Shown here: positions 22,427-38,551 of the stretch, piece after piece
Layout: the number at the start of each line of letters is the position of its first letter
Position numbering within the stretch: position 1 is the stretch's first letter
From: Nitrospirota bacterium
GTDB lineage: Bacteria; Nitrospirota; Thermodesulfovibrionia; Thermodesulfovibrionales; UBA9159
NCBI GenBank assembly: GCA_963699545.1
Contig: CAVOUE010000003.1
Location: 839,118-903,117 of the forward strand
DNA length: 64,000 nucleotides
Direction: 5' to 3'
Position numbers and translations under genes: made by a program
The notes under the pieces: generated by a model
Seen by the model: the letters and a program-made list of their open reading frames with translations, nothing else
What the model was told of the DNA's origin: nothing
Database searches by the model: none

Positions 22427-23386
22427 GTGGGGTTTGACGAAATTATGAAACTCAGGATAGGGCATCTCTCCACCTTTTACCATACTTCAATCTTGTTAAT
22501 GGCAAAGGGAGACGCCGGCAAAAAACTTGGAGTCGATGTCGAGTGGGAGTTGTTCGGCACAGGTCCCGCAATTGTGGAAGCCTTTGAAAGAGGCAAGCTT
22601 GACCTCGCTTACATTGGATTGCCGCCGGCCATCATAGGGATAAGCAGGGGAATGAGCATTATATGCATTGCGGGGGGACATATAGAAGGAACAGTAATTG
22701 CCGGGGAAAGAGAGTTGATCAGCTATCAGGAAGAAGAAGACATACGGATTATCCTCGATCAACTCACAGGAAAGTGCATAGGAGTGCCGGGGAAGGGTTC
22801 GATACACGACGTGATCATAAGGGAATGCCTTGAAAGATTGAATCTCACGGAAGGGATAGAGATAGTGAATTTTCAGTGGGCTGACCAGGTGACAGAGGCG
22901 GTGGCGAAGGGAGAAGTCTCCGCTGCAGTCGGCACTCCTGCCTTGGCCGTGGCAGTTGAACGCTATGCCGCTGGTAAGATCCTCTATCCCGCGTCAAGGC
23001 TCTGGCCCCACAACCCCAGCTACGGAATTGTCGTAGACAAAAGGTTTTTGACCGAGGAGAGGGAAACGGTCGAGCGCTTTCTCGTTCTCCATGAAGAGGC
23101 GACTTCCCTGATCAGGAACAGGCCGGGAGAGGTGGCGAGGACGATCGCCCGTTATGTCGGGTTCATCGATGAAGAGTTTGTGATGGATACCCTGAAGGTG
23201 TCTCCAAAATACTGTGCCCAGATCACCGACGAGTATATTTCTTCGACGATGGAATTTGTGAAGGCGCTGAAACGGCTGGGATACATACGCAGAGACATCG
23301 GTTCCGACGGCATTTTTGATACCCTTTTGATCAGACGACTTCATCCTGAGAAAGACCACTACGGAGACGGCATCGCAGAGGCTTAA
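22427..23386 (+). CDS. SsuA/NrtA/THI5-like periplasmic-binding-fold protein without signal peptide
   Basis: LRIGHLSTFYH, FGTGPAIVEAF..LDLAYIGLPP, GVPGKGSIHDV; no hydrophobic N-terminus. Confidence 0.8.
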   Translation: MGFDEIMKLRIGHLSTFYHTSILLMAKGDAGKKLGVDVEWELFGTGPAIVEAFERGKLDLAYIGLPPAIIGISRGMSIICIAGGHIEGTVIAGERELISYQEEEDIRIILDQLTGKCIGVPGKGSIHDVIIRECLERLNLTEGIEIVNFQWADQVTEAVAKGEVSAAVGTPALAVAVERYAAGKILYPASRLWPHNPSYGIVVDKRFLTEERETVERFLVLHEEATSLIRNRPGEVARTIARYVGFIDEEFVMDTLKVSPKYCAQITDEYISSTMEFVKALKRLGYIRRDIGSDGIFDTLLIRRLHPEKDHYGDGIAEA

Positions 23387-24525
23387 CCGCGCATGAGGAA
23401 CTCTTGCACCTGTCTTTTTATCTCCAGATGGTGCAGGGGAATATTCGGCACATCCTTGTTTCCCGGAACAGCGAGGACATGGACAAATCTGACCCCCTCG
23501 TCTGAACTTTTCATTACATCCGTCAACCCTTTCTCATCAGCCACTTTGATGGTATTCTTTATCCCGAATCCCGTCGCCACAGCCGCAAGGTCAACACATG
23601 ATTTTGTAAGTGTGGGCTGGTTTCCTGTTGAGCCGTAGGAACCGTTATCTATTGCAAAGACGGTGAGATTTCCGGGCGAGAAATGTGCAGCAGTAGCAAG
23701 GCTCCCAGGATTCATCAAGAGGCTCCCGTCACCATCTATTGCAATAACGTGCTTTCTTGATGTCAGCGCGATCCCGAGTCCGATGGGGGTAACCATGCCC
23801 ATGCTGCCCAGCATATAAAAGTTGGACGGCTGGTGTTTGATATGGAAGAGTTCTTTTGAAGGGGCGCCAAGATTGCATACAACCACTTTGGAATCAAGAT
23901 AAGGGGCTATGATATTCAGAATCTCGAAGCGTGTCAGCCGCGGCGAATGCGTCCGGTGCCCGATAGGTGCTTCATATTCAATTCTTTCTTTGGTGCCTTT
24001 TGTTCTGACTGAGGACTGCTGAACGCTGACTTCCGATTTTTCCCATATCGCGGGGCTGAGGAGAAATGCGTGGATCCGGTTCTTCTTGTAAACGTCTTCA
24101 AGTCTCTTCCCTACAAGCCCGAAATCCTTCCGTGTGTTGACGGCTGTATGGTGTATGCCGGCGCCATCTAAAATACCAGGGAGTTTCTTGCCCATGGGTA
24201 TCTGGGCTCCGATTTTCTCTTTATATATGCCTCTGCGGCTGACAAACAAGGCGAGGGGCAGCCGGTAAAATCCTGTGAGGGAAAGTAATGCATTGATCAT
24301 ATTCCCGACGCCTGAACTCTGGACGAACATTGCGGGCCGTCTGCCGGATAATGCAGCGCCTGCAGTGATGCCGACACCCTCTTCTTCCCGGGTCAAAGGC
24401 ACATGAAAAAACTCTTCGCTCACCCGTTCGAGAAGGACTTTGATCTTCTCGCAGGGAAGGGAAGAAATAAAGTCGACCCCGTTCTTCTTAAGCAGTGCTA
24501 TCAGCTCTTCTTCAGGGTATTGCAT
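23383..24525 (-). CDS. comDE: Fused sulfopyruvate decarboxylase alpha+beta
   Basis: ComD half (SLPC, LTREEEGVGITAGA, QSSGVGNMINAL, RGIYKEKIGAQIPMG) fused to ComE half (NLGAPSKEL, NFYMLGSMG, TPP motif DGDGSLLMN, DNGSYGSTGNQPT). Confidence 0.88.
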   Translation of the reverse strand: MQYPEEELIALLKKNGVDFISSLPCEKIKVLLERVSEEFFHVPLTREEEGVGITAGAALSGRRPAMFVQSSGVGNMINALLSLTGFYRLPLALFVSRRGIYKEKIGAQIPMGKKLPGILDGAGIHHTAVNTRKDFGLVGKRLEDVYKKNRIHAFLLSPAIWEKSEVSVQQSSVRTKGTKERIEYEAPIGHRTHSPRLTRFEILNIIAPYLDSKVVVCNLGAPSKELFHIKHQPSNFYMLGSMGMVTPIGLGIALTSRKHVIAIDGDGSLLMNPGSLATAAHFSPGNLTVFAIDNGSYGSTGNQPTLTKSCVDLAAVATGFGIKNTIKVADEKGLTDVMKSSDEGVRFVHVLAVPGNKDVPNIPLHHLEIKRQVQEFLMRG

Positions 24526-25757
24526 AGTAACCCCTCTATCTCCTTCTCCGAAATCTTTTTTGATATGGCAAGGGGCTCCACAGTATACATTTCCCTCTTC
24601 TGTTTCAGTCTCTTTTCGCCACCTCCGGTGATATTGAGTAATATCGTGTCGCTCTTCTGTACCGTGCCCGTGTGCACGGCATTTATGAGGGCTGCGGATG
24701 CAACCCCGGCTGCAGGTACGATATCTATCCCCTCCGCCCTTTCGAAGATCTCCATTGCAGAATACACCTCCTCATTTCTTATGCCATACATTTTTCCCCC
24801 TGTTGCCTTGAGGGCGTCATAGACGCCACCGCCGAGGGAATAGGCAGGATAGCGGGTCGAAAGAACCCTGGTGGTTATCTCTCCTATCAGTTCAGGTTTC
24901 AGATCCTCAGGAGAGAGGTTCCGGCTGCCTTTCTCCCACGCCCTGAGCATGGGAGCAAAAGGCAGGTTCTGAGCGAGGTGAAGGACCGGCAATTCAGTAC
25001 CAAATCTTCCGTCCCTTATAAACCTTTCCGCCATCTCCCATACCCCTATCGCTCCGGTACCGCTCCCCACGGCCTGGAAATAGTGGTCAGGAAGTCTCGC
25101 CATTACCGAGACAGCTTCAAGGAGTACCACTCCAAGACCATCTCTCTTTGCAATATTCTTCACCCCTCCCTCAAAGGGGATGCCGAGGGTTGAGGAGATT
25201 CTCTTTGCGACATCGATGGAGTCTGCGTAATCGCCGTCGCTTAACGCAAGGGTTGGTATCCCGGGAGAATTTTCGAGGCACCACATTTCCACAAGACACA
25301 TCCTCGGAACAACAATGACCACCGGAAAATCAGAGAGGACGGAGAGGTGGGAAAATGCCCTCGCGGTATTGCCAGCTGACGCCACGACGAGTCCATGGAC
25401 ACCGTTTTCTCTTGCGTTCTGGAGCACCACCGCTGCCTCAAATTCCTTGAAGGTGCACGTCTGAAGCGATGCCCCCTTTTCCGGCCAATAGCCATTAAAG
25501 GCTATGAAAAGGTTCTCGAGACCGAGCTGTTGAGAGAGACCTGTTGATCGGTAAACCAAAGGACCTGATTGTTCAAAGCGCGGGGTATGTACCGGGAGCC
25601 AGTTAAATCTCCAAATACCCCGGGTATCGCTTTCAGTAAAAGTGATATCGTTATATTCTGTTATGAGGAGCGAATCCTTGCAGTGTTCGCAAAAGGCACA
25701 GTACACATCCTCAAGCCTTTTCCCGCAATTCCTGCATCGTATCGAAAAATGGCTCAC
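24501..25757 (-). CDS. Cysteate synthase (PLP, threonine-synthase-like, MA3297 type)
   Basis: N-terminal CxxC..CxxC, FNGYWPEKGA..TCTFKEFEA, SAGNTARAF, EGGVKNIAKRDG, DHYFQAVGSGTG, QNLPFAPM, VLSTRYPAYS; overlaps comDE. Confidence 0.9.
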   Translation of the reverse strand: MSHFSIRCRNCGKRLEDVYCAFCEHCKDSLLITEYNDITFTESDTRGIWRFNWLPVHTPRFEQSGPLVYRSTGLSQQLGLENLFIAFNGYWPEKGASLQTCTFKEFEAAVVLQNARENGVHGLVVASAGNTARAFSHLSVLSDFPVVIVVPRMCLVEMWCLENSPGIPTLALSDGDYADSIDVAKRISSTLGIPFEGGVKNIAKRDGLGVVLLEAVSVMARLPDHYFQAVGSGTGAIGVWEMAERFIRDGRFGTELPVLHLAQNLPFAPMLRAWEKGSRNLSPEDLKPELIGEITTRVLSTRYPAYSLGGGVYDALKATGGKMYGIRNEEVYSAMEIFERAEGIDIVPAAGVASAALINAVHTGTVQKSDTILLNITGGGEKRLKQKREMYTVEPLAISKKISEKEIEGLLCNTLKKS

Positions 25758-25767
25758 ATTGCCTCCT

Positions 25768-26971
25768 TCAGATGAGGCTCCCCAACAATTCCATGATGTC
25801 GGTGATTACTACCTGCTTATCATGCCCCTGCATCGCTTCGTTTACCTTGGAATAGCATGCAGGACAGCTCAGGATAAGCCTGTCTGCCTTTTTCTCCACT
25901 GCCTCATCAATGGTCAGCCTTCCCATGGCGGTGGCATTTTCGGCGAAGACCTTTCTTGCTGCGCCGCCGGCGCCGCAGCATTGTGAATTGAGGCCGTGCC
26001 TTTCAAATTCGATGAGTTCAGCGCCGGGTATGCTTCTGAGGACGATCCTCGGCTCTTCAATCACCCCCACCCCTCTGCTCAGATAGCAGGGGTCGTGGTA
26101 GATTAAATTTTCTTTCAGCTCCTTCTTAATGACGAGTTTTCTTTTCTTCAGTGCATCGACGACAAATTGTGTAATATGCGCTATCTTGAAAGGGAGCGCC
26201 TGCCCATAAAATAGCGGCCAGTCCCTTGACATAATATTCACGCAGCATGGGCATGAACTTATGAGCAGTTTCACCCCCTTTGCCTTGTATGCATTCACGA
26301 GCCTCTTGGTAAGATCCTCAAGCATATCATGCTGCCCTGTGATGAAGAGAGGGAATCCGCAGCATACTTCTTCCTCCGGAGGAAGCATGGTGAATGGTTC
26401 GCCGATTGCGCCCAGCACAAGCACATCACCTTTCACCATGGGCTGGGCTTCATAGGCTCCGGTGCAGCCGGCGTAGTATGCGATCTCAGCTTTTTCAACG
26501 ATCTTGACCTCATCGGGAAACCAGGGGCTGTATCGCTCTTTGTCCGGCTTGTTATAGGGATTTCCCGTTCTCCTTTATCACCTTGGGAAGATTTGCCTGC
26601 GGACCGATCGGCCCGAGCCCCATGTCCACCATCTTTTTTCTCAGGAAAGGCCAGAGCCTTTGACTGAAGATCCCCACCTCGCAGGCCTCTCCGCAGGCCC
26701 CGCATGTGGTGCATTCAAAAACTGCCTTCGCGAACTCCTCAAGCAACTGTCTGCTTACTTCACCAGGACCGAAAAGGCGTGCCTTGAGCCCTTCCGTATT
26801 CTTGATAAAATCTCGATACATCCTGATTTTTTCAGGTGGCGAGATCTTCCGATTTTCCGTGACTTCCTGAACGGGACACCATTTGAGACACTCACTGCAT
26901 CGCGTGCATGCATCGAGTTCTATAAGATGAAGCTTCGTCAGCCCTTCGATAAAGGATTGTTGTTTACCCAT
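25768..26971 (-). CDS. hdrD: Heterodisulfide reductase subunit D-like Fe-S protein (frameshift near 26560)
   Basis: Two CxxCxxCxxxC motifs (ELDACTRCSECLKWCP; CTTCGACGEAC), then two CCG domains (YAGC..CCG..SCPCC; HDPCYL..CCGAGG..SCPAC). Confidence 0.85.
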
Positions 26972-27773
26972 GGGTAAACTCCCAGAGACTTGATTTTCTT
27001 CTCGATGCTTCTGCTGTAGTAATCTGGGCGGTGAACATATGGAACTGCTTGGAAAAGGGGAGATAGGCGATAAAGGTAAAGGCAGAAAAGGCATGAAATG
27101 CCCAGAAAATCCTGTAGAGAAGTCGGGATGAAGGATAGCTTCGGGTCACGGGACTGAACATCTGAGAAAAGAGAGCGCCTACAGGCGACCAGTCCATCAG
27201 CGGCGGATGAAACCGTGCGAGACGGATTCCCTCAACGCAGAATCCGCTGAGGATTATGAGAAACATCAGAATAAGGACAAAAGCATCGTCCCAGCTCGAG
27301 ACAACAATATTCCTGGAAAATACATATCGCCTCAGGATATAAAACAAGAGACTTATTAAGGCCAGGCCACCTGCGATGTCCAGTACGAGGGAATAATAGA
27401 GATAGAAATGTCCTCTCAATATATGGAGACCAAAGTCATAATCAATGGCAACGAGAAGCGTCCCAATAAAGAGGATAATAAATCCCCAGTAGACGAATAT
27501 AAGCATGACTCCTCTGGGTCTGCTTTTCTCCATGACCCTCCGGGCAAAGAGACATTCCATCGAGAAGAGATAGAGGAGGCTTATCCTTATAAGCCCCCAT
27601 ATCGATTTCTTAGGGATATAGTCAGAAGGGTCATCCCTGCCTTTAAGCCAGATGGATACTTTCGACCATGAACCTATGAGAAAGATCGCGACCGCTATTG
27701 CGGCTGCCCCGTAAAAGAGTATCCTCAGGAGTGAAGGGATATCCCCGAAAACTAATCTTGTCGCTTCTCCCAT
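26964..27773 (-). CDS. NarI/HdrE-like membrane cytochrome b anchor
   Basis: 5-6 TM segments; ILSGFCVEGIR, WSPVG, FHAFSAF..IAYLPFSKQFHMF; its stop overlaps the hdrD start. Confidence 0.75.
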   Translation of the reverse strand: MGEATRLVFGDIPSLLRILFYGAAAIAVAIFLIGSWSKVSIWLKGRDDPSDYIPKKSIWGLIRISLLYLFSMECLFARRVMEKSRPRGVMLIFVYWGFIILFIGTLLVAIDYDFGLHILRGHFYLYYSLVLDIAGGLALISLLFYILRRYVFSRNIVVSSWDDAFVLILMFLIILSGFCVEGIRLARFHPPLMDWSPVGALFSQMFSPVTRSYPSSRLLYRIFWAFHAFSAFTFIAYLPFSKQFHMFTAQITTAEASRRKSSLWEFTHG

Positions 27774-27811: not shown

Positions 27812-28156
27812 TTATTCCTTTTCGCTGCTCTTGCTTATCTTTCTGCTCTCCAGAAATGTGACGCTCACATCTTTGGGGACAGCAAAGCCTGCCTCCACCT
27901 CCATGGCCTTGAGGATGCCGCTGGGCACAGGACAGGTCACATGTTTCAGGTGCTTCGATGCCGAACGGTAGACGGGATTATCGAGAAACCTTGTGAATAC
28001 CGCCATCATATCGAGGGCAGCGATCTCATCAGCCATGTTTTTCACCATCTCGCATTCTGTCTCAAGGGAGATCAGGATTTTTTTGTCCTTGTCCCTCTCG
28101 GCAGTTACGGTCGTTGAGAATCCGCACACCCCTGAATGGATAAGCACCTTTGTCAT
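27812..28156 (-). CDS. Conserved small Cys/His protein (DUF6951-like)
   Basis: GVCGF..C..HVTCPVPSGILKAMEVEAG. Confidence 0.7.
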   Translation of the reverse strand: MTKVLIHSGVCGFSTTVTAERDKDKKILISLETECEMVKNMADEIAALDMMAVFTRFLDNPVYRSASKHLKHVTCPVPSGILKAMEVEAGFAVPKDVSVTFLESRKISKSSEKE

Positions 28157-28198: not shown

Positions 28199-29007
28199 TC
28201 AGACCTCGGAAAGTTGATGCACATGGGTGAACATGCCGTTCACGCTCCTTGTCTTTTCCCTCTCCCCGGCAAGGAACAGGAGTATCTCCTTTCTTATGGA
28301 ATTCAGTTCAGGGCTTGTCCTGTCCCTGGGATGGGGAATATCCACCGTAATTACCTTCCCGACCTCTGCCGGGCGTGAGGTGAGACAGATGATCTCATCC
28401 CCGAGGAATACCGCCTCTTCCACGTTATGGGTCACAAAGACCACGGTCTTCTTCGCCTTCGCCCATATCTGAAGAAGAGCCGTTTGCATGTAATTCCTCG
28501 TCTGGCAGTCCAGTGAGACAAAGGGTTCGTCCATGAGAAGGACCTTCGGTTCCACCACCAGTGCCATGGCCATGGCCACCTTCTGTTTCATACCCCCGGA
28601 GAGCTCCTTTGGATAAAAGTCTCCCGAAGTCCTGGAGTTCTACCAGTTCCAGGCCGGCAAGGGCCTTCTGTTCTCCGCTGCTCTTTAGGGATGCCTGCGA
28701 CCTCAAGGCCGAACTCAACGTTTCTTATCACGGTCCGCCACGGCAGGAGGGCCGGCTCCTGGAAGATATATCCGACCTCCCTCACCGGTTCGGCAATCTC
28801 CTTGTCCCCCAGGAGGATCTTTCCCCTGTCGGGCCTTTCAAGCCCCGAGATTATTCTCAACAGTGTCGTTTTGCCGCACCCGCTCGGACCGATGATGCAG
28901 ACAAATCTCCCCTCTGGCACAGTGAACGACACATCCGTAATCGTATCGATCCGTTCACCCTCTGAGGCGTTGAAGGCTTTATGGAGATCAATCACTTTCA
29001 GGTCCAT
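28199..29007 (-). CDS. Sulfonate/nitrate/taurine-type ABC ATPase, frameshifted near 28600-28670
   Basis: GPSGCGKTT, FQEPALLPWRTV, ELSGGMKQK, LMDEPF, FVTHNVEEA. Confidence 0.88.
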
Positions 29008-29011
29008 AGGG

Positions 29012-29779
29012 TCATCTCCACCTGAGGACCCTGTCTTCGATCTTCCTTATGGCGAGGTCCATTGTATAGCCGATCCCTCCGATCACCGCCATACCCGCGA
29101 TGATCTGATCGGGCCGCTGAATATCTCTTGCAGTCATGATCATATACCCGAGGCCATATCCGCTCCTTACCCCTGTGAATTCTGCGGCAACAAGGGTCAT
29201 CCATCCGATTCCCAGGGCGATGCGTATCCCCGTGATGATGGAGGGCATTGCCCCCGGCGTGAGGACCTTCATAAAGAGGACTCCCCTCTTTGCGCCGAGG
29301 ATGATGGACGACTCAATAAGCCTTTTATTGATGGACAAAACCCCTCCGATGGTATTCAGGAGGATGGGGAAGAAGGCACCGAGGAAGATGATGAAGGAAG
29401 AGGCTTTGTCCCCGATGCCGAACCAGAGAATTGCAATGGGAACCCATGCAAGGGGAGGTACGGGCCGTATCATCTCAACAAAGGGGGTGAGGTAATCCCT
29501 CGCTTTCGCCCAGTACCCCATCATCATGCCGAGGGGCAGGGCGGTAACAAAAGCTATGGCCACCCCGCTCAACACTCTTTTCAGGCTCGAGATGCAGTGG
29601 CCGGTAAGGGTATATCCTGGAGGAAGGCCCTCCGTAGTCAGTTCTGTGAACCCATGAAGTATCGTCACCGGAGACGGCAGCCTGTTGCCGGGGATGATGC
29701 CGGAGGAAGAGAGTATCTGCCACACGACCACAACCCCAAAGACCGGGAGGTACCTTAAGGACCTATATGCGCGGCGCAA
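29012..29779 (-). CDS. Sulfonate/taurine-type ABC permease
   Basis: RPVPPLAWVP..LWFGIG, WMTLVAAE..GLGYMI. Confidence 0.92.
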   Translation of the reverse strand: MRRAYRSLRYLPVFGVVVVWQILSSSGIIPGNRLPSPVTILHGFTELTTEGLPPGYTLTGHCISSLKRVLSGVAIAFVTALPLGMMMGYWAKARDYLTPFVEMIRPVPPLAWVPIAILWFGIGDKASSFIIFLGAFFPILLNTIGGVLSINKRLIESSIILGAKRGVLFMKVLTPGAMPSIITGIRIALGIGWMTLVAAEFTGVRSGYGLGYMIMTARDIQRPDQIIAGMAVIGGIGYTMDLAIRKIEDRVLRWR

Positions 29780-29826
29780 TCTTCTTTCTCTCCCTCTACA
29801 CGTTTTAAAGGAAAGCCCGTGGAACG

Positions 29827-30783: not shown

Positions 30784-30866
30784 GTACTCTCTCCTCTTCA
30801 ATACAGGTCGCGGACTTTCGGCGGAAAGCATCCTTCTTTCTCTTCCCCGAGTCCTGCCACTGATTT

Positions 30867-30883: not shown

Positions 30884-32857
30884 CTACGCCTTTATTTCCA
30901 CCTTGCTCCCAGACTTTTCGAGGAGTTCCTTCAGGTTCGGGAACTTGTCCTTCATATGGGGGATATGCATTGCCTGCATGAATTCCTTCTCAAAAGCAGG
31001 GTCAGTGGCGATTTCAAGAAATTCCACCCACCGCGCCCTGTCACCGGCTTCCTGTCTCTTGCCCCTGTTGAGGAGGGCCATCCTCGCGCCGTCCCCCGCC
31101 GCATTGCCCACGGCATATACCTTGTCGATGGGACAATCGGGGAACATCCCTAGGGTCATGGAAGCTTCCCTGTCGATGTGGCTCCCGAAGGCGCCTGCAA
31201 GGACGACCCTGTCAAGCTTTGTGATCCCCAGCTTCTTCATCATCAGCTTCGCTCCGGTGTAGAGCGCGCCCTTAGCCAGTTGGAGCGCCCTCACATCCCC
31301 CTGAGTGACGGTGATGTCAGTTCCGATGGAGGTCTCTTCAGCCCAGGCGAGGACGTACTCCGGTTTTCCGTCAACGTCCTTCCGGACCCTCGGGGTATCA
31401 AGCCCCATCATGAATCTCCCTGACTTGTCGATGATCCCCGCCTTGAACATCTCAGCCACCACTCCGATGATCCCTGAACCGCATAACCCCTTCGCGTTCA
31501 CCTTCTCGATCTGGGTGTGCCAGTCCGCCTTGCCGATCACTTTGTACAACGGCTCTTTCGTGACGGGGTCGATCTGGACCTTCTCGATGGCCCCGGGTGC
31601 GGCCCTCATGCCGAATTTTATCTGGGCTCCTTCAAAGGCAGGGCCTGTGGCGCAGGAGGTGGAGAAGACCTTGTTCCTGTTGCCGAGGAGGAGTTCACCG
31701 TTTGTGCCGATATCGATGATCAGCACCATCTCGTCCTGATTATACGGCTCCTCGGCGATGAGTACGCCTACGTTGTCCGCACCCACGAAACCTGCCTCGA
31801 TGGGAAGCACATGGATATAGGCTGCGGGGTTGATCCTTAATCCGAGGTCCCGCGCTTTGATGTCCAGTGAGCTCTGCACGGCCGGAATGAACGGTGAGCG
31901 TCCTATATACTCGGGATTGAAGCCGAGGAATATGTGGTGCATGGCGGTATTGAAAACGATGGTGAGGTCATCGATCGCGAAGCCTGGATTCGGTCCGTCC
32001 TCCTTAATCTCTGTTACTACCTTTTCTATGATCTCGTTCAGGCCACCTATGATCGCCTTCTGCATGGTTTCGAGGCCTGTCGGATTGCTCATTGCATACG
32101 TTATTCGGGACATAACGTCCTCACCGTAGGGCACCTGGGGGTTCATCATCGACTCGGTATTCATAACCTTGCCGATAGTGAGATCGGAGAGATAGCCAAC
32201 GCACGTCGTGGTTCCGACGTCTACCGCAAGGCCATAGCATGCCTCCACAAAACCGGGCTCCACCTTTATGATCTCCTTGTCCATCCAGACCGTGACCGTG
32301 GCTTTCCATTGCCCCTTCCTCAGCACATCCTGAAGATCTCTCAGCACCATGAAGTCAAAGGTGAGGTTCTTGAGACCGTAGTCATTCTCAAGGAATTTCA
32401 ATACCCTTTCGTAGTCCCCTGTGGTCATGTCATGGAGCGTGGGGGGGGCGAGTTCCACGTTATATTTCTTCACCGCAGGGTCCAGGGTTATGGTAAGCTC
32501 CTTTGCGGCCTTCCTCACCACCTGTTTCCCGGCCCTCGACCGTTCGGGGACAAAGACCTTTACATCACCGTATACCTCCGCTGTGCAGGCAAGCCGGACC
32601 CCCGGGCCGTCTTCAGGCTTTATATGTTTTTTTTCGTCTTCTGTGAGGTCAGAGAGATGGTCCATGCCGGACTCCATTCCGTCTTTCTCAAAATATCCTT
32701 CCTCGATCCTCACCTTGCACTTTCCGCAGACCTTCTTGTTGCCGCAGAGGGCCTCGATATCAACACCCAGAGACTGGGCGGCCTCGAGGAGGGTCTTGCC
32801 TTCTTCGACCTCGCCCCGCCTTCCTGACGGCTGAAATATCACCCTGTATTTTTTCAT
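30884..32857 (-). CDS. RACo-type ASKHA ATPase, reductive activator of corrinoid proteins
   Basis: Intact paralogue of 3779-5722 with 2Fe-2S N-terminus, DVGTTT, GEDVMSRI, DIGTNGE, GPAFEG, GNAAGDGA. Confidence 0.93.
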   Translation of the reverse strand: MKKYRVIFQPSGRRGEVEEGKTLLEAAQSLGVDIEALCGNKKVCGKCKVRIEEGYFEKDGMESGMDHLSDLTEDEKKHIKPEDGPGVRLACTAEVYGDVKVFVPERSRAGKQVVRKAAKELTITLDPAVKKYNVELAPPTLHDMTTGDYERVLKFLENDYGLKNLTFDFMVLRDLQDVLRKGQWKATVTVWMDKEIIKVEPGFVEACYGLAVDVGTTTCVGYLSDLTIGKVMNTESMMNPQVPYGEDVMSRITYAMSNPTGLETMQKAIIGGLNEIIEKVVTEIKEDGPNPGFAIDDLTIVFNTAMHHIFLGFNPEYIGRSPFIPAVQSSLDIKARDLGLRINPAAYIHVLPIEAGFVGADNVGVLIAEEPYNQDEMVLIIDIGTNGELLLGNRNKVFSTSCATGPAFEGAQIKFGMRAAPGAIEKVQIDPVTKEPLYKVIGKADWHTQIEKVNAKGLCGSGIIGVVAEMFKAGIIDKSGRFMMGLDTPRVRKDVDGKPEYVLAWAEETSIGTDITVTQGDVRALQLAKGALYTGAKLMMKKLGITKLDRVVLAGAFGSHIDREASMTLGMFPDCPIDKVYAVGNAAGDGARMALLNRGKRQEAGDRARWVEFLEIATDPAFEKEFMQAMHIPHMKDKFPNLKELLEKSGSKVEIKA

Positions 32858-33060: not shown

Positions 33061-33729
33061 CTATCCCGTCTTAACAAAAGATTTCTCCTGATCTTCCCGG
33101 TATACTTTCCTCCCGTAGGGACAGATGGTAATGCAGAGACCGCAGTTGGGTTTGCCGTGCAGTGCCCTGATCTTCTTCTTGTGGGACGCGCATTTGTCAA
33201 GCTGAATGAGTTCAGGGAACGGTTCATGCCTTGACCACTGTTCCCCTGTTATGGCGTCCGAAGGACAGAACTCCATGCACAACCCGCAGTTACCGCAGAG
33301 ACTGTGCTCTATGGGGATGCCGGCCTGAAGGGGCGCATCGGTGAGGATCGTGGCAAGGGAGAGCCTCGGACCGAAGTCCGGGTTAATGAGAAGTCCGTTC
33401 TTGCCTATCCAGCCAAGCCCTGCAGAGGTTGCGGCCATCTTGTGGGTGAAGAAGGGATAGAGTTTCGATACGAAGGTGTTCCGTATCCTGTCGGAATCAG
33501 GGGGAATGCACAGGTACCGGTATCCAGCCTTCCGCAGAATTTCGGCGGTCTTCTTCTGGAGGCCGATGAGCAGGCTTACCGTGTCCTCGTTGAGGTTCCT
33601 GTCCACACCAATCGAAACAGCCCTTTCGAGGTGGGCTATATCCTCATGCAGGGCAGCCTTCAGACATGCGACACCCACCACCGCCGCCCCTGAACGAAGG
33701 AGCTCTTTTTTGATCGTTCCCTCCATCAC
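33061..33729 (-). CDS. QueG/RdhA-like 2x[4Fe-4S] protein
   Basis: THKMAATSAGLGWIGKNGLLINPDFGPRL, CGNCGLCMEFCP, CGLCITICP. Confidence 0.82.
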   Translation of the reverse strand: MMEGTIKKELLRSGAAVVGVACLKAALHEDIAHLERAVSIGVDRNLNEDTVSLLIGLQKKTAEILRKAGYRYLCIPPDSDRIRNTFVSKLYPFFTHKMAATSAGLGWIGKNGLLINPDFGPRLSLATILTDAPLQAGIPIEHSLCGNCGLCMEFCPSDAITGEQWSRHEPFPELIQLDKCASHKKKIRALHGKPNCGLCITICPYGRKVYREDQEKSFVKTG

Positions 33730-34418
33730 TTTCTCTTCTTTGCTTCAGCCTCTTCCTTGAGTTTCTTCAGAGAGCTGATCATGTTGATGGCGTCTTTCAG
33801 GGCGTTGTTGGCGTCTTTCGCATATCCGTCCGCCCCCCATTTCTCTGCGATATCCGCGGATACGGGCGCTCCACCGATCATGATCTTGACGTTCGGATTT
33901 TTCTCGTGGAGGTTGTCGATGACCTTCTTCATTCCGGTCATCGTCGTCGTCATCATCGCCGAGAGACAGACGAGGTCGGAGGCGGTCTTCATCTGTTCCT
34001 CAACGAACTTATCGAGAGGCACGTCACGCCCGAGGTCGTATACGGTGAAGCCCGCCACGTCAAACATCATCTTCACGATGTTCTTGCCGATGTCATGGAC
34101 ATCACCTTCCACTGTTCCGATGACAACGGAGCCCTTCACGCCGAGGTCAAGCTGCACCACATGAGGCTTCAGGATATCGAGACCCGCATAGAGGGCATCG
34201 GCGCACATGAGGAGTTCGGGTACGAAATACTCCTGTGCCTCGAAGAGCCTTCCCACCTCTTCCATGCCGCTCACGAGGCCGTTGAAGATCGCTTCGTTGG
34301 CATCCATCCCCACATCAAGGACTTCCTGGGATGCTTCCTTTGCGGCGTCTTCGTCGTATTGGATCACCGCATTTCTCAGTCTTTCCAAAAGCTCCTTTTT
34401 CTTTTCGTCCGTTGCCAT
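33726..34418 (-). CDS. Methyltransferase cognate corrinoid protein
   Basis: EYFVPELL, GDVHDIGKN, LGRDVP, LSAMMTTT, IGGAP. Confidence 0.95.
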   Translation of the reverse strand: MATDEKKKELLERLRNAVIQYDEDAAKEASQEVLDVGMDANEAIFNGLVSGMEEVGRLFEAQEYFVPELLMCADALYAGLDILKPHVVQLDLGVKGSVVIGTVEGDVHDIGKNIVKMMFDVAGFTVYDLGRDVPLDKFVEEQMKTASDLVCLSAMMTTTMTGMKKVIDNLHEKNPNVKIMIGGAPVSADIAEKWGADGYAKDANNALKDAINMISSLKKLKEEAEAKKRK

Positions 34419-34423
34419 TTTAT

Positions 34424-35458
34424 CTACCTCCTGTATTTTTTCACTTCATCCATCATCGTTCGTATGTTTTCGGCAGGAACCGTGGGCCAGATGTCACAGC
34501 CGGGCCATACCGCACTGACGCCGTCGTCCATGCATTTCTTCATCGTCTCCTTTACCATTTCAGGGGTTCCCGCTACGAGGACGTTGTAGGGGTCATAGTT
34601 CCCGAAGATGAGGGCGTCCTTGCCAAGCTTCTTGCGGGATTCTGCAACGTCATTTTTCTGGTCAACGCTAATGGCCTTGGCGCCGGTCTCTATCATGAAG
34701 GGAACGATGTCGTTTGTCTTTCCGCAGATGTGGAGAACGCTGGGAACCGTCAACCTGTCAACGATCTTTTTGATGTAGGGCTGGATCAGATTCTTGAAGA
34801 CCCGTGGACTTAACACATCAGACGTCGCTCCCATCTCCCGCACGGTTATATAATCAGCTCCCGCCTTTTCGAACTGGCCTGCCACCATGACAATGGCATC
34901 CGCAAGGAGATCGAGGAGTTTTCCCACCTTGTCGGGTTTCTTGAAGGAGAGTTTCAGCAGGTCATTGAGTTCCATGATCTGTCCCGCAAGGGTAAAAGGG
35001 CCGAGGACATATGTCCCTATGGGAACGTCTCCCCCGATGTTCTTCTTCATCAATCCGATGGCTTCACACACAAGAGGTATCCTCCCCTTTTCCTGAAAAC
35101 CGGAAGGGATCGAGATATCCATCTCGTCTTCCTTATGGATAAGTTTCTTCTTGATCGTGGGATAAAGAAGGTCTTCGGAATGGGCGTATACATTTATTTC
35201 ACAGCCCAGGGCCTCTGCTTCCACGCAGAGGTCAAAAGGGACCACGCCGCACTCAAACCCGAAGAGCCTGTAGGTTGTGGATGCCGCGCCGGCCATCATC
35301 TTTGCATCAAGGTGCGACGCAGCGAACTTGTACCCGAGGGATTTCAGGCCTTCTGTGGTAACATTCCCCATGCCGCTGAAGCACGGCGGCCTGTCAACCT
35401 CTTCCCTCGCAAAGAGCTTCATTATTCTTTCTTTTGCCGTCACGGTTGTTATGGACAT
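34424..35458 (-). CDS. MtaA/CmuA family methylcobalamin:CoM-type methyltransferase
   Basis: VPFDLCVEAEALG, GPFTLA, Zn motif LHICG...WPGCD. Confidence 0.88.
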   Translation of the reverse strand: MSITTVTAKERIMKLFAREEVDRPPCFSGMGNVTTEGLKSLGYKFAASHLDAKMMAGAASTTYRLFGFECGVVPFDLCVEAEALGCEINVYAHSEDLLYPTIKKKLIHKEDEMDISIPSGFQEKGRIPLVCEAIGLMKKNIGGDVPIGTYVLGPFTLAGQIMELNDLLKLSFKKPDKVGKLLDLLADAIVMVAGQFEKAGADYITVREMGATSDVLSPRVFKNLIQPYIKKIVDRLTVPSVLHICGKTNDIVPFMIETGAKAISVDQKNDVAESRKKLGKDALIFGNYDPYNVLVAGTPEMVKETMKKCMDDGVSAVWPGCDIWPTVPAENIRTMMDEVKKYRR

Positions 35459-35502: not shown

Positions 35503-36450
35503 TTATTTTCGTGCTCCTCCTGATGTCAATTTCTCTATGAAATCAGAAAAGTGTTTTCGTATGGGGAGGTCCTGGTTCGCGGGTATCTGCTTTGTCTCAT
35601 CATATACAAGGGTCGAGAGCAGGATATGAGCAGTCGCCACAGCAGGGAATATCCGAGGCGCTGTTACAATGGGCCCGTAGAAATTGAAATCGCTCCACAG
35701 CGCCGAGCACATGCCCTGAGCCACCGCGTCCATGGCCTTGAACCCGTCAAGGCTCCAGATGGTCTTCGCATCTCCCCACATGTGCGTGCCGTTGGAATAG
35801 GCGCCTCCGCAGGGAAGCCCCAGTTTTTCCTTGATCAGCCTGTTGGCGAGGAGGGAAAAGGATGTGGCGGGCAGATTCATCACCGATGTATCCACGATCA
35901 CCGTCTCAAAACCGTCAGCTCCCTGTGCAAGGATGCTCTCAAGGGACTTGAGCCTTCCGGCGGGGGACTGGTCAGCGTCGTCAAAGGCCTGGACCACCAC
36001 GTGTTTTATGCCGAGATCCTTCAGTTTGTTCACCTGTCCTTTGATGTCTTTATCCCAGGGAGTGATGCTGTTGTAAAGGAACTTGTCCTGAACTCCCAGC
36101 TTTGCAATGTATTCTGTTGCCTTTGCCCTTTTTTCCGCGACCCACATATCAATGCCGAAGGGCATATCGGTTGTTTCGAGATAAAAATCTATATATATCT
36201 GTGCCTCTTCAGGGCTATTAGCCACTATCGCCACCATTCCGGGGATTCCCGTTGAGGCAGAGAGTTCTTCCTGTTTCATGATCAGCTCTTTTGCCTTCTG
36301 TCTGTCAAAGTTTCCCTTTCTGTCCACAAGTATCTTGTCTTTGTTATGAAACATGGATGCAATGAGAAACGGCGGATTTTCTCCGGGCTGGCCGCCTATC
36401 CTGACCCCGGCTATTTTTACCACTTTCTGTTCTGTCTTGAATTGAAACAT
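35503..36450 (-). CDS. MtrH/MtgA/CmuB-like methylpterin:corrinoid methyltransferase
   Basis: MFQFKTEQKV..IGGQPGENP, YNSI, KEKLGLPCGGAYSN, FYGPI; no other mtr subunits nearby. Confidence 0.85.
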   Translation of the reverse strand: MFQFKTEQKVVKIAGVRIGGQPGENPPFLIASMFHNKDKILVDRKGNFDRQKAKELIMKQEELSASTGIPGMVAIVANSPEEAQIYIDFYLETTDMPFGIDMWVAEKRAKATEYIAKLGVQDKFLYNSITPWDKDIKGQVNKLKDLGIKHVVVQAFDDADQSPAGRLKSLESILAQGADGFETVIVDTSVMNLPATSFSLLANRLIKEKLGLPCGGAYSNGTHMWGDAKTIWSLDGFKAMDAVAQGMCSALWSDFNFYGPIVTAPRIFPAVATAHILLSTLVYDETKQIPANQDLPIRKHFSDFIEKLTSGGARK

Positions 36451-36507
36451 CCCTTCTCCTTCTTTATCCTATTTTCTGAAAACATCATTTCCTGAAATGC
36501 AAGAATT

Positions 36508-36532
36508 GTAGGGGGTGCAAAGCACCCCCTAC
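36508..36532. repeat. Perfect 11-bp hairpin, GTAG/REP-like
   Basis: GTAGGGGGTGC-AAA-GCACCCCCTAC, intergenic. Confidence 0.55.
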
Positions 36533-36542
36533 GCACTCAGAC

Positions 36543-37064
36543 TTAAAACACTCCATGGTCGAACTTGGGCTGCGGCAGATACTCCCATTTTTCGTTCTTA
36601 CGGTATTTTGCCTCGATATCGAGACACTTGAGGGCATACTCAAAGGCATAGGGAATACCGGGTCCGCCCGGCACGAAGCCGGCCAGGATCATACCGACTG
36701 AGGCCGCTTCGAAGATCTCCCCGGTCGTTGCTCCTGCGTTGATCGCGGGTATCACATGGATGATACACCTCGGTGAACAGTACCCAACACCGCCTGCCAT
36801 GAACATCAGTTCCTTCACCTTGCGGGAGAGCGCCCCGTCTCCGAAGATGCTCGCATAGAAGTCTGCGAAGGTCCTTCCTGGTTCAGGGGTAACGGTATTG
36901 ATGATCTGGAACATCCTCGGCACGAACCCGCACTGCTTTTTCATATACTCGTTTACTTCTTCCACCGTCATCTTCTTCTGATCTGCCATTGCTGCCTCCT
37001 TGTGCTGCCCGGAAGGGGAACCCTTCGGGGCAAATAGTTTTTTCAACTCCTCAAATATTCCCAT
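36543..37064 (-). CDS. Carboxymuconolactone decarboxylase/AhpD family protein
   Basis: GFVPRMF, GALSRKVKELM, CSPRCIIH, GATTGEIFEA; alternative start at 36988. Confidence 0.82.
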   Translation of the reverse strand: MGIFEELKKLFAPKGSPSGQHKEAAMADQKKMTVEEVNEYMKKQCGFVPRMFQIINTVTPEPGRTFADFYASIFGDGALSRKVKELMFMAGGVGYCSPRCIIHVIPAINAGATTGEIFEAASVGMILAGFVPGGPGIPYAFEYALKCLDIEAKYRKNEKWEYLPQPKFDHGVF

Positions 37065-37105
37065 GTTCACCTCCCTACTTTCAAGCGGCCCTTCTCACCT
37101 CCTCT

Positions 37106-38146
37106 TTACGAAAGTTTCCACTGAAACGCCACATCGTGGAACCTTCTGATGTTTTCGTACGGTATGGTCGGCGGTATGTCACAGCCGGGGACAAGGATGA
37201 ACCCCCCGTCCCTTGCTGCAACTTCAATAACTTCCCGGCACGCCTGTTCCACCTCATCCGCAGTCTCGTTGAGCAGCACATGAACAGGGGCGATATTCCC
37301 GCCAAAGCACATCTTGCCGGAGAGGACATCCTTCGCCTTCTTTATATCCACCTTCTGATCGAAGAATATTGCGGAACTTCCGGTAAGGGGAAAGAGTTCA
37401 AGGCGGTCGCTGGTATCGCCGCATATGTGCAGGATGGTGTGTGCCTTCTTCGATCTCGCCCAGTCACTCATCTTTTTCAGGGCAGGCACGGCGAAACGTT
37501 CCATCTGCTTCTTGTTTATCAGGTCCCCCGAGGCAGTCGGATCCGCGATGCTTATGCATTCAAGGCCGTCATTTACCAGCGGTTCATAAAGGTGGATCAA
37601 AAGGTCGGCGCAGAAATCCACCATCTTTTCGACGAAGGCCGGTTTCTTGAAGATCGACTTCATGAACGTTTCTTCGCCGACCATCCGTGCCGCAAGAGTG
37701 AAGGGCCCCCAGCACGTCATGGTGACAAGGTATTTCTTCCCTATCTTTTCGTTCACCCTCCGCGTGGCTTCCATGACGGTTTGTATCACGGGATCTTTAA
37801 GGACATCCTCTTTATGAAGTTTCGCCATATCCTCTTCTGAATTCACAAAGTGCGTGGTGAGATCGGGTGCGCCTATCTCGCGGTATTTGATCCCGGCGCC
37901 AAGGACCTTGCCCACGGCCAAAGCATGGAAGTTATTATAGCCCGAGCCGACGTAGACCACATCGCTCCTGATCTTTTCCGCTTCTGTTACACACATGTCG
38001 GTCATCTTTTCCGGATCGAGGGACAGTGCCTCAAAACTCGTCCCATAATCCTTGATAGACCACATCCCCCCACCGAACAGGGTCACAGGCACCCTCTCCG
38101 GTTTCCCCATTTCAAAAGCCTTTAGAATGATTTCCCGCGGTGTCAT
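37106..38146 (-). CDS. MtaA/UroD-family methyltransferase
   Basis: KPERVPV, GPFTLAA, IADPTASG, LHICG, GGFILVPGCD. Confidence 0.88.
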   Translation of the reverse strand: MTPREIILKAFEMGKPERVPVTLFGGGMWSIKDYGTSFEALSLDPEKMTDMCVTEAEKIRSDVVYVGSGYNNFHALAVGKVLGAGIKYREIGAPDLTTHFVNSEEDMAKLHKEDVLKDPVIQTVMEATRRVNEKIGKKYLVTMTCWGPFTLAARMVGEETFMKSIFKKPAFVEKMVDFCADLLIHLYEPLVNDGLECISIADPTASGDLINKKQMERFAVPALKKMSDWARSKKAHTILHICGDTSDRLELFPLTGSSAIFFDQKVDIKKAKDVLSGKMCFGGNIAPVHVLLNETADEVEQACREVIEVAARDGGFILVPGCDIPPTIPYENIRRFHDVAFQWKLS

Positions 38147-38169
38147 GCCTTCCTCCTTTTCCCTCTTTA

Positions 38170-38520
38170 TCAAATCCCGGATAACGCACCGATGCGACGT
38201 ACATCATGGATTGCCCTCTTGAACTCTTCCAGGTCAACCGGCAGGTTCATGCTCACGATGTCACTATCCAGCTTAGCAAATCCCACACAAATGACAACAA
38301 TGCCAGGGGAAACGCTTTGTATTATCTGGACCGCATCTTCTGCAGAAAGGCCGAAGGACTCCGAATCGATGATGACGGCGACGTAGCTTCCCTGAAACAC
38401 CCTCTGTACCGCAAGGGCCGAGTGGTCAACCACTTCAACTCCGAACCCTTCGTCCCTCAAGATTCCGTAGACGTTCTTTATGAGGATCGGATTATGTGTG
38501 CAGAGAAGAACTTCGTTCAT
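38170..38520 (-). CDS. Degenerate receiver-domain protein
   Basis: CheY-like pattern (ILRDEGFGVEVV..VIID..GLSAEDAVQII..PVDLEEF) lacking the acidic pair and the conserved Lys. Confidence 0.65.
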   Translation of the reverse strand: MNEVLLCTHNPILIKNVYGILRDEGFGVEVVDHSALAVQRVFQGSYVAVIIDSESFGLSAEDAVQIIQSVSPGIVVICVGFAKLDSDIVSMNLPVDLEEFKRAIHDVRRIGALSGI

Positions 38521-38535
38521 GGTAGGGTATAAAGA

Positions 38536-38551
38536 AGCAATTTTGATGCCA
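38536..38551 (-). promoter_or_regulatory. Sigma54 -24/-12 promoter of the methyltransferase/CoM gene run
   Basis: TGGCATCAAAATTGCT on the minus strand. Confidence 0.8.

Follow-up and report, generated by a model that had tools for sequence, protein, structure and literature searches.

The final 64 kb of a 903-kb contig (CAVOUE010000003.1) from a Nitrospirota bacterium carry an operon in which archaeal-type genes for precursors of coenzyme M (CoM) are joined to MtaA-type methyltransferases and to an enzyme resembling heterodisulfide reductase (HdrD). This stretch of 64,000 nucleotides, whose positions are counted from its first letter, is called the window hereafter; the genome it belongs to comprises 3.04 Mb in 13 contigs and is 86.9% complete, with 5.1% contamination. 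From 38520 down to 23383 on the minus strand, the lists of open reading frames (ORFs) give 16 co-directional and tightly packed genes, with intergenic gaps of -25 to +92 nt and a single exception of 203 nt between the QueG-like and the RACo genes, while the junctions from HdrE through HdrD and cysteate synthase (CS) to ComDE have gaps of 10 nt or less, or overlap. Domains were called by Pfam and NCBIfam profile searches, and the scores are given in bits against the curated cut-off. The operon, from its promoter to the convergent gene at its far end, is made up as follows:

38537-38551, minus strand: sigma54-type -24/-12 element (TGGCAT-N5-TTGC, TGGCATCAAAATTGC), called from its motif and conserved position
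38170-38520, minus strand: small receiver-like protein of 116 aa, encoded first in the operon; in PDB, the receiver domains of response regulators match its sequence weakly (E 4e-4)
37106-38173, minus strand: MtaA_a, divergent member of the URO-D family (PF01208, 196 bits)
36543-37070, minus strand: AhpD/CMD-family protein (PF02627, 26.6 vs 23 bits)
35503-36450, minus strand: MtrH-family methyl-corrinoid:pterin methyltransferase (PF02007, 188 bits; NF002142, 338.5 vs 287)
34424-35458, minus strand: MtaA_b, MtaA/CmuA family (NF004889, 291 vs 244; TIGR01463, 262 vs 235)
33726-34418, minus strand: corrinoid (B12-binding) methyl-carrier protein (PF02310 and PF02607)
33061-33729, minus strand: QueG/reductive-dehalogenase-like Fe-S protein of 222 aa (partial TIGR00276 and TIGR02486 matches)
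30884-32857, minus strand: RACo-type reductive activator of corrinoid proteins (Fer2, linker, middle and C-terminal domains, all four in Pfam)
28199-30831, minus strand: SsuABC-type sulfonate importer, three genes
29827-30831, minus strand: its SsuA-family binding protein (TIGR01728, 191 vs 163.5)
29012-29779, minus strand: its permease
28199-29007, minus strand: its ATPase, with two frameshifts
27812-28156, minus strand: DUF6951 protein (PF22263, 118 bits)
26964-27773, minus strand: NarI/HdrE-like integral membrane protein (PF02665, 26.5 vs 22.9)
25768-26971, minus strand: HdrD-like Fe-S protein with two 4Fe-4S motifs and two CCG domains, read through a frameshift at about 26557-26566
24501-25757, minus strand: CS (TIGR03844, 480.4 vs 324.9, residues 4-395)
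23383-24525, minus strand: fused sulfopyruvate decarboxylase ComDE of 380 aa (TIGR03845, 178.6 vs 147.95; TIGR03846, 221.9 vs 221.5)
22427-23386, plus strand: SBP2, a protein of the NMT1/SsuA fold (PF13379), convergent with ComDE and overlapping its stop codon

A preliminary description of this DNA, made from the letters alone, had already drawn the 16-gene run and its domains, and both are borne out by the ORF lists and the profile searches, but for the receiver-like protein, which has no Pfam or NCBIfam match. The sigma54 promoter that it placed ahead of the run holds as well: the motif alone stands at chance frequency in the window (4 matches vs 3.3 expected), yet its position is kept, 31 or 42 nt ahead of the first gene, in all six copies with upstream sequence (the window, contig C1 of the same genome, and loci L023, L050, L016 and L072). 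The element is preceded by a terminator-like hairpin that closes the upstream OsmC-like gene, and a gene for a GAF-domain sigma54 activator lies 2 kb from it. Within the operon, scans for sigma-70 promoters (15 vs 12.8) and for terminators (24 vs 19.2) gave results at chance level.

The genome encodes DsrA (above the cut-off) and ACS (CdhC), the latter one of the Wood-Ljungdahl genes that the preliminary description had named as worth seeking, and it holds 24 URO-D matches, corresponding to roughly a dozen genes, together with further corrinoid/RACo sets. Judging by DsrA, ACS and the many URO-D genes, the host is a sulfite- or sulfate-reducer that has a Wood-Ljungdahl pathway and numerous corrinoid methyltransferases. 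A search of this 86.9%-complete genome found no McrA domain, which agrees with the earlier view of the operon as one without methanogenesis genes.

Concerning the methyltransferases, MtaA_b passes two family models and remains under the equivalog cut-offs of MtaA (NF040654, 259 vs 400) and MtbA (NF041608, 210 vs 600), and MtaA_a is under the cut-offs of both the families (TIGR01463, 196 vs 235; NF004889, 180 vs 244) and the equivalogs (NF040654, 160 vs 400; NF041608, 166 vs 600). The best PDB match of each is M. mazei MtaA, 4ay7 (E 7e-27 for MtaA_a and 8e-49 for MtaA_b), with whose HICG and PGC motifs their zinc ligands align; these ligands are invariant, as H249, C251 and C331 among 22 orthologues of MtaA_a and as H243, C245 and C321 among 56 orthologues of MtaA_b. 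Such a His-Cys-Cys site is the mark of S- or Se-methyltransferases in the superfamily (Kountz and Balskus, PMC10418091), and its retention in both proteins supports the earlier assignment to MtaA-type thiol methyltransferases. The MtrH-like protein is likewise under the equivalog cut-offs of MtrH (TIGR01114, 170 vs 271) and MtgA (160 vs 550), the corrinoid protein slightly under that of TIGR02370 (209.6 vs 215.3), and RACo, with 478 bits, misses the cut-off of 800 of the AcsV model.

Two further proteins accompany the methyltransferases. The small QueG-like protein has eight invariant Cys residues, sufficient for two 4Fe-4S clusters, and a Foldseek search with its structural model returned QueG (E 4e-9), RdhA (E 2e-8) and MMACHC (E 3e-5) within a range of hits reaching 1e-4, from a model whose predicted local distance difference test (pLDDT) is 67 overall and below 50 in the ferredoxin part. 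The partial profile matches, the Cys residues and the Foldseek hits place it in the QueG/reductive dehalogenase superfamily, with a nitroreductase-like core, predicted to bind a cobamide, and a ferredoxin domain for two 4Fe-4S clusters. The AhpD-like protein is the most conserved of the cluster, with orthologues 59-96% identical, and its C102, H105 and C149 are invariant. C98 is replaced by Met in 4 of 41 orthologues, so that a conserved dithiol pair is lacking; selenocysteine at this position was considered and rejected, the variant residue being Met.

At the other end of the operon, CS and ComDE both pass curated equivalog models, which confirms the identities first given to them, with a margin of only 0.4 bits for ComDE in TIGR03846; against the phosphonopyruvate decarboxylase model TIGR03297, ComDE reaches 199.9 and misses the cut-off of 312.5. 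In HdrD, both CxxCxxCxxxC motifs and all the CCG cysteines are invariant among 74 orthologues, and the PDB matches, to HdrB and HdrC, are weak. Two genes in its place, one HdrC-like and one HdrB-like, were considered and ruled out, as the relative L067 has a single ORF of 410 aa (L067:8772-10004). DUF6951 has C11, C35, H72 and C75 invariant in 67 orthologues. The Foldseek top hits of its model (pLDDT 90) are all IscU, SufU, SufE or CsdE and are weak (E 0.02-0.6, TM-score about 0.5); in VIA-align, IscU gives a Z of 6.3, with all Z values at 6.5 or less and unrelated folds at similar Z. This possible likeness to IscU/SufU/SufE is to be taken as a lead only.

SBP2 shows no N-terminal signal-like stretch and is predicted to be cytoplasmic. 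Its best PDB match is a taurine-binding protein (E 1.6e-4), and it has many invariant His and Cys residues.

Conservation in Nitrospirota and beyond

A scan with one genome per species yielded 443 stretches encoding a CS relative, and the best 80 of them were compared. Nearly all of these 80 come from metagenome-assembled genomes labelled Nitrospirota, Nitrospiraceae or Thermodesulfovibrionia, including Candidatus Sulfobium, and the best 120 listed CS homologues are 71-81% identical, the named ones being almost all Nitrospirota, Nitrospiraceae or Thermodesulfovibrionales. The same gene order recurs in most of the 80 related Nitrospirota loci, and it contradicts the chimeric contig that the preliminary description, proposing such a synteny search, had seen as one of the outcomes that would undo its reading. 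A gene was taken as assessable at a locus only where its downstream neighbour was present and enough sequence was left. The ratios of present to assessable are 76/77 for ComDE, 74/79 and 72/72 for the C- and N-terminal parts of HdrD, 62/63 for DUF6951, 60/61 for RACo, 55/56 for the QueG-like protein, 52/52 for the corrinoid protein, 50/50 for MtaA_b, 49/49 for MtrH, 41/41 for the AhpD-like protein, 30/30 for MtaA_a and 8/10 for the receiver-like protein.

Conservation extends across the phylum, for which 301 Nitrospirota genomes from 122 genera were sampled, using the AhpD-like protein as marker of the methyltransferase module. CS is present in 59 of the 301 genomes (28 of the 122 genera), the marker in 62 and both together in 57, counts that are descriptive and not a test, since kin are not independent. 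The co-occurrence in relatives on which the preliminary description depended is therefore found. The two genomes with CS only are 65% and 74% complete; among the five with the marker only, the cluster is cut by a contig end in two, and the other three make up one genus. SBP2 accompanies CS in 58 of the 59 CS-bearing genomes, and it is not in the three genomes that have the methyltransferase module and no CS. The cluster is clearly genuine and inherited as a unit rather than chimeric. Look-ups of its proteins in a protein atlas gave their own families only, in Nitrospirota, Chloroflexota and Thermodesulfobacteriota.

The genus without CS, g74 (genomes G035, G044 and G090), keeps the operon from the receiver-like gene through DUF6951 and has no CS, ComDE or SBP2 in the genome; an HdrE/HdrD pair lies nearby in the opposite direction (locus L089 of G044 and L091 of G035), only 40-47% identical to that of the operon. 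This genus offers a natural test case for the need of the module for CoM.

Other parts of the cluster vary. In a comparison of 87 Nitrospirota loci (the 80 and seven fetched in addition), FolD, the methylene-tetrahydrofolate dehydrogenase/cyclohydrolase, is inserted between DUF6951 and the membrane subunit in 11 (L036:6751-7698 and ten others), and a methyl-accepting chemotaxis protein with an sCache domain occupies the same site in six (L030:6328-7920 and five others). Of the HdrDE pair of the preliminary description, HdrD stands as far as its architecture is concerned, and the NarI-like protein of the window is a putative b-type cytochrome partner; this type of membrane protein is found in 8 of the 80 loci and most relatives differ: in 61 of the 87, HdrD is preceded by another membrane protein of about 229 aa, with 5-6 transmembrane segments, no Pfam match and weak similarity to the NarI-like protein of the window (E 1e-5). 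The SsuABC importer is a lineage-specific accessory, its binding protein having an orthologue in 2 of the 301 phylum genomes and at 1 of the 80 loci. It occurs at three positions, between RACo and DUF6951 (window and G180), after DUF6951 (C1), and between HdrD and CS (L083), and this argues for repeated selection to keep a sulfonate transporter with the cluster.

Beyond the phylum, a CS tree of 98 rows, drawn from 150 relatives, places the Nitrospirota sequences in a distinct and well-supported clade, 43-49% identical to the nearest other clusters; of 20 CS representatives looked up, two carried an organism name, Phycisphaerae and Methanomassiliicoccus. A scan of metagenome contigs with the CS relative P0122, which is 49% identical to the window CS, uncovered a second clade (L096, L097, L098, L101, L106 and L107) in which the genes for CS, ComDE and SBP2 run in one direction and overlap at their ends, SBP2 being translationally coupled to CS-ComDE. 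One member, L098, is an 83-kb metagenome contig with a guanine-plus-cytosine (GC) content of 34% and an archaeal-type CTP-dependent riboflavin kinase; it has a class IV aminotransferase gene ahead of CS and, opposite CS-ComDE-SBP2, genes for DsbA-like, AhpD-like, HdrD, HdrE and DsbA-like proteins, with no methyltransferases. In L096, CS-ComDE-SBP2 is followed by AhpD-like, DUF6951 and DsbA-like genes. Elsewhere, HdrC- and HdrB-like genes come after CS-ComDE in L120 and L113, and L125 shows the canonical order MMP16-CS-ComDE. Hdr-type CCG proteins thus adjoin CS-ComDE in three separate lineages (Nitrospirota, L098 and L120/L113). The recurrence of Hdr-type proteins and SBP2 beside CS-ComDE in distant lineages ties HdrD to the product of the CS-ComDE pathway.

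Proposed function and competing explanations

The reading that we favour, with a probability of roughly one half, is that of a soluble corrinoid system that transfers methyl groups between tetrahydrofolate and a sulfonated thiol, most probably CoM, which the cell makes itself; an HdrD-type thiol/disulfide enzyme would be attached to it. In its favour are the family assignments, the conserved gene order and promoter, the joint presence of CS and the marker in 57 genomes, the zinc ligands, FolD in the cluster, ACS and DsrA in the genome, the Hdr-type neighbours of CS-ComDE in three lineages, the association of SBP2 with CS and the three positions of SsuABC. Gene identities, conservation, co-occurrence and metal-site residues are observed; CoM as the thiol, tetrahydrofolate as the pterin, the direction of methyl flow and the substrate of HdrD are inferred. 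The system would consist of two linked modules in one conserved operon of sulfate-reducing Nitrospirota. The first would comprise CS, the fused ComDE, SBP2, the HdrD-type Fe-S protein and its membrane partner. In it, CS, a housekeeping aminotransferase and ComDE would convert phosphoserine and sulfite to sulfoacetaldehyde, a sequence of steps supported by homology, and in a sulfide-rich cell sulfoacetaldehyde would go on to a sulfonated thiol, most simply CoM, by a route not involving MMP16, in which SBP2, HdrD and/or DUF6951 may take part. HdrD would act on this thiol or on its disulfide and, with its membrane partner, could couple the thiol/disulfide state to the quinone pool.

The second module would comprise the two MtaA-family zinc thiol methyltransferases, the corrinoid protein, the MtrH-type protein, RACo and the AhpD-like, QueG-like and DUF6951 proteins. 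Methyl groups would pass through the cob(I)amide and methyl-cob(III)amide states of the corrinoid protein, kept active by RACo, between tetrahydrofolate and thiols. MtrH would catalyse the exchange between corrinoid and tetrahydrofolate, a role to which its family membership points and which would tie the system to a pterin, in keeping with the FolD gene inside the cluster of the 11 relatives mentioned above; MtaA_a and MtaA_b would exchange methyl groups between the corrinoid and thiols or thioethers, CoM among them. The net result would correspond to the methyl-pterin:CoM transfer of methanogens in a soluble, bacterial form (similar to Mtr and MtaA), linked to the C1 pool of the Wood-Ljungdahl pathway. 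The cell might thereby dispose of or exchange methyl groups as methyl-thioethers, make use of methylated sulfur, or draw on a CoM pool that also serves redox defence.

Several points weigh against this reading. A methyl carrier cycling between thiol and thioether needs no disulfide reductase. According to the energetics of the Mtr reaction, methyl transfer from a pterin to a thiol is downhill, and the opposite transfer, from thioether to pterin, costs about 30 kJ/mol; if methyl-CoM had a catabolic function, this would for that reason need coupling, and none is seen here. The genus g74, having the whole methyltransferase module and no CS, ComDE or SBP2, indicates that the module can work without self-made CoM. 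None of the curated MtaA cut-offs is reached by MtaA_a, nor are those of the MtaA and MtbA equivalogs by MtaA_b, and since MtaA also methylates non-native thiols (PMC13618148), the sequence cannot fix the thiol substrate. Lastly, MMP16 (COG1900) is the primary CoM synthase of methanogens, where sulfide can partly replace it (PMC12068725), and PF01837/COG1900 was not found in the genome of the window (86.9% complete) or in five other genomes with the cluster, among them a single-chromosome record, by searches in which the controls, M. jannaschii and M. acetivorans, gave matches. In the genome of the window, TIGR03287 gave only ferredoxin-domain matches of at most 27 bits against a cut-off of 364. 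As MMP16 is not found in these six genomes, the step from sulfoacetaldehyde to CoM is left here without a known enzyme.

The preliminary description held that this bacterium makes or imports CoM. As for making it, CS and ComDE are confirmed, but with MMP16 not found in the six genomes, CoM itself is the probable product rather than an observed one. As for import, SsuABC is the CoM transporter of M. acetivorans (PMC12068725), but in this phylum the importer, on which the claim rests, is the accessory described above. SBP2 is a new candidate for the last step of CoM synthesis. Tentatively, and with the odds rather against it, one may go further and suppose that the anaerobic sulfate-reducing Nitrospirota and the archaeal-type clade without adjacent methyltransferases both make CoM by a route that replaces MMP16, with a new enzyme set centred on SBP2 and perhaps with electrons and sulfur from the HdrD-type protein and the IscU-like DUF6951. 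In the bacteria, CoM would then carry methyl groups within a soluble tetrahydrofolate:CoM methyltransferase system, a third role of CoM after methane/alkane metabolism and epoxide carboxylation, and one widespread in the sulfate reducers of groundwater, wetlands and sediments.

Among the alternatives, the one that survives best, rather unlikely as it is, takes the methyltransferases as a CoM-independent system for methyl-sulfur or methyl-selenium compounds, exchanging methyl groups of methanethiol, dimethyl sulfide, methylmercaptopropionate or methylselenides with tetrahydrofolate, next to an unrelated sulfonate module in which the end product of CS, ComDE and HdrD would be taurine, isethionate, a sulfonolipid precursor or a thiol of redox use only. 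The His-Cys-Cys sites would suit any thiol or selenol, the AhpD-like and OsmC-like proteins have weak matches to (seleno)protein families, and the URO-D genes and further corrinoid/RACo sets of the genome would fit a general methylotroph; that MMP16 was not found in six of six genomes and that g74 keeps the module without CS, ComDE and SBP2 also speak for it. It is opposed by the 57 of 59 CS-bearing genomes that hold the module and by the arrangement of the genes, which are co-directional, closely spaced or overlapping from HdrE to ComDE, and placed behind one conserved promoter. Moreover, the cluster has no sulfoacetaldehyde aminotransferase or reductase, no sulfoacetaldehyde acetyltransferase (Xsc) was found above the cut-off (best match 350 bits vs 676), and an MtrH-type pterin methyltransferase is present, unlike in type-1 mlp clusters.

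Unlikely too, and partly compatible with the reading that we favour, is a core devoted to the redox state of a low-molecular-weight thiol, with CoM as a protectant resembling glutathione. With quinol as reductant, HdrD and its membrane partner would return CoM disulfides to the thiol state, the AhpD-like, OsmC-like and DsbA-like proteins would use CoM-SH, and the methyltransferases would be attached only because CoM or corrinoid redox repair serves them. Such a role would agree with the gene content of L098 and L096, where CS-ComDE-SBP2 stands with DsbA-like and AhpD-like genes (and with HdrD and HdrE in the former, DUF6951 in the latter), with the OsmC-like genes that flank the operon in the window, C1, L067 and G180, and with the absence of a close HdrD orthologue together with CS-ComDE in g74; CoM is also an antioxidant in Methanosarcina (PMC12713407). 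Nonetheless, the AhpD-like gene of Nitrospirota lies between those for MtaA_a and MtrH and is retained in the methyltransferase module of g74, its protein does not conserve the classical dithiol motif (C98 being Met in 4 of 41), and the co-occurrence with a full methyl-transfer system in 57 genomes would be left unexplained.

The breaks in the reading frames have to be weighed at this point. A single frameshift, caused by an additional base within a run of A at 26557-26566, splits HdrD; two at about 28611-28678 interrupt the ABC ATPase, and one at about 41509 the sigma54 activator. At the HdrD site, short-read contigs from related populations in other metagenomes have 1 nt less (X1 record 1, X2 record 9 and X4 record 24); at the ATPase site, the related contig that spans it is 2 nt shorter (X3 record 18); and at 41509 there are two extra bases in three related contigs. 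Several other URO-D genes of the genome are split as well. The breaks in HdrD and the ATPase are most likely assembly indels and not decay, because related contigs are free of them, HdrD is one ORF in L067 and other URO-D genes are also split.

The genome contains a second full copy of the cluster on contig C1 (C1:14431-33790), in which the proteins are 57-93% identical, SsuABC, OsmC and CobW neighbours are again present and frameshifts are more numerous, as well as a partial copy with the QueG-like and RACo genes at the start of a contig (C5:2351-5101). These reflect either true paralogy or a co-binned relative, given the contamination of 5.1%; two copies are also found in genome G148. That a mis-assembled chimeric contig or pseudogenised remnants merely resemble an operon, as four frameshifts in 16 kb (HdrD, the ABC ATPase twice, the sigma54 activator), a bin contamination of 5% and the second copy on a 49-kb contig might suggest, is very improbable in view of the identical gene order in dozens of independent assemblies, including a single-chromosome record, the even GC content across the region, the lack of the indels in related short-read contigs and the conservation of all catalytic and cluster residues.

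Relation to known systems and significance

CoM is regarded as a signature of methanogens and alkane-oxidising archaea, the bacterial exception being aerobic alkene oxidisers with an unrelated pathway, and the last step of its synthesis was debated in methanogens until 2025. With the CoM toolkit of the Methanosarcinales, the operon shares the models of CS and fused ComDE, the family and zinc ligands of MtaA_b, an HdrD with two 4Fe-4S motifs and two CCG domains, a NarI-like protein as its putative membrane partner and, in this lineage, SsuABC. It differs in that its host is a bacterium with DsrA and ACS, no McrA and no MMP16/COG1900 found, in that its pterin methyltransferase is a free MtrH homologue and not the membrane Mtr complex, and in the additional conserved AhpD-like, QueG-like, DUF6951 and SBP2 proteins and the other membrane subunit of most relatives. 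In Methanosarcina acetivorans, CmtA is a soluble methyl-tetrahydrosarcinapterin:CoM methyltransferase, with corrinoid and MtaA-like parts fused, that bypasses the membrane Mtr. MtrH, the corrinoid protein and MtaA_b would work alike, as a cytoplasmic bypass of Mtr, whereas their parts are separate, bacterial and presumably tetrahydrofolate-using.

The MtgABC system for glycine betaine and the MtoABCD system for methoxydotrophy reportedly cluster a substrate methyltransferase, a corrinoid protein, an MtrH/MtgA-type protein and an activase. The same four elements lie in one cluster here, whereas the two methyltransferases are of the thiol type (His-Cys-Cys) and are joined to sulfonate-thiol biosynthesis and an Hdr-like enzyme. 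DsrMK/HmeCD also pair a membrane subunit with a cytoplasmic two-4Fe-4S/CCG protein, and HdrD has weak NCBIfam matches to DsrK and QmoC, but its scores are far under the DsrK cut-off and its gene is fixed beside CS-ComDE, not beside dsr genes. The Xcb route (XcbA-E, from phosphoenolpyruvate, in aerobic alkene oxidisers), the only described bacterial CoM biosynthesis (PMC9457059), shows that bacteria can use CoM; in contrast, its enzymes are unrelated, its hosts are aerobic and its CoM serves epoxide carboxylation and not methyl transfer (PMC9457059).

The type-1 mlp gene cluster is the nearest published idea. Such clusters, mostly from Firmicutes and proposed to carry out S- or Se-methyl transfer (Kountz and Balskus, bioRxiv 2023, PMC10418091), resemble the operon in combining several His-Cys-Cys MtaA-like proteins with a corrinoid protein and RACE/RACo in non-methanogens (PMC10418091). 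By definition they have at least two MtaA-like proteins, a corrinoid protein and RACo, all of which are present here, and no tetrahydrofolate methyltransferase, whereas an MtrH-family gene is present at every one of the 49 assessable loci; the accessible text of the paper also describes them without CoM-biosynthesis or Hdr genes (PMC10418091). The statement that no system like this has been described agrees with the open full-text literature (subscription journals and supplements lying outside its scope), in which no description of the cluster was found and no paper joins CS, sulfopyruvate decarboxylase or comDE with the stems Nitrospir and Thermodesulfovibrio or with Sulfobium. The accessible text of the Candidatus Sulfobium paper makes no mention of methyltransferase, corrinoid, heterodisulfide, coenzyme M or sulfonate (PMC5812927).

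An operon that joins archaeal-type CoM precursor genes, MtaA-type methyltransferases and an Hdr-like enzyme is thus carried by about one fifth of the sampled Nitrospirota (59 of 301). The interpretation given to it is plausible and hinges on a presumed cofactor, and the chance that the operon will reveal a new CoM synthase, along with a bacterial role of CoM not seen before, is realistic. If the interpretation holds, CoM-dependent methyl transfer would take place in sulfate-reducing bacteria, and an undiscovered enzyme would carry out the last step of CoM synthesis. In that case, the annotation of MtaA, MtrH, HdrD and CS as 'methanogenesis markers' in metagenomes could not be read as archaeal methane metabolism, and these bacteria, which abound in the subsurface and in wetlands, may produce, consume or exchange CoM or methylated thiols in the company of methanogens. 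Furthermore, testable roles are provided for families of unknown function, namely DUF6951, the AhpD-like protein, the small QueG-like protein and SBP2.

Flanking genes and other features of the window

Three genes flank the operon on its promoter side:

38723-39280, minus strand: OsmC-like gene
39468-40391, plus strand: CobW/G3E GTPase, divergent from the operon
40419-41919, plus strand: GAF sigma54 activator, with a frameshift at about 41509

The OsmC-like, CobW and activator genes recur beside the copies in contig C1 and G180, and the CobW/G3E GTPase is kept beside those in C1, G180, L050 and L090. G3E GTPases are unexplained neighbours of the CoM genes of methanogens (PMC12068725), and that of the operon may act as a chaperone delivering zinc to the MtaA-like enzymes.

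The window has two further sigma54-like elements, at 42177-42191 and 43572-43586 (plus strand), just upstream of an OsmC-like/DsrE-like pair (42201-43192) and of a rhodanese-domain protein of 407 aa (43787-45010), respectively. These OsmC-like, DsrE-like and rhodanese genes for sulfur transfer may share a regulator with the operon.

On the other side of the operon, an ORF of 172 aa (21441-21959, minus strand) matches only the C-terminal half of GrdB, the selenoprotein B of glycine/sarcosine/betaine reductase, and is perhaps a fragment or else a selenoprotein interrupted at its TGA. The stretch 1784-5495 holds a second corrinoid protein (about 2941-3558, 43% identical), a truncated RACo (4068-5495) and, at 1784-2723, weak URO-D-like matches with in-frame TGA codons; it may be a further methyltransferase set, a decayed one or one with selenocysteine. 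Finally, two cobalamin riboswitches (6339-6519 and 13967-14173, plus strand; 109 and 68 bits) flank genes for CobT, CobS, a histidine phosphatase, CobQ, a TonB-dependent receptor and BtuR (9880-13932, 14203-16206 and 17052-17597), and this B12 supply island, with genes for the cobamide lower ligand and for salvage, adjoins the methyltransferase operon.

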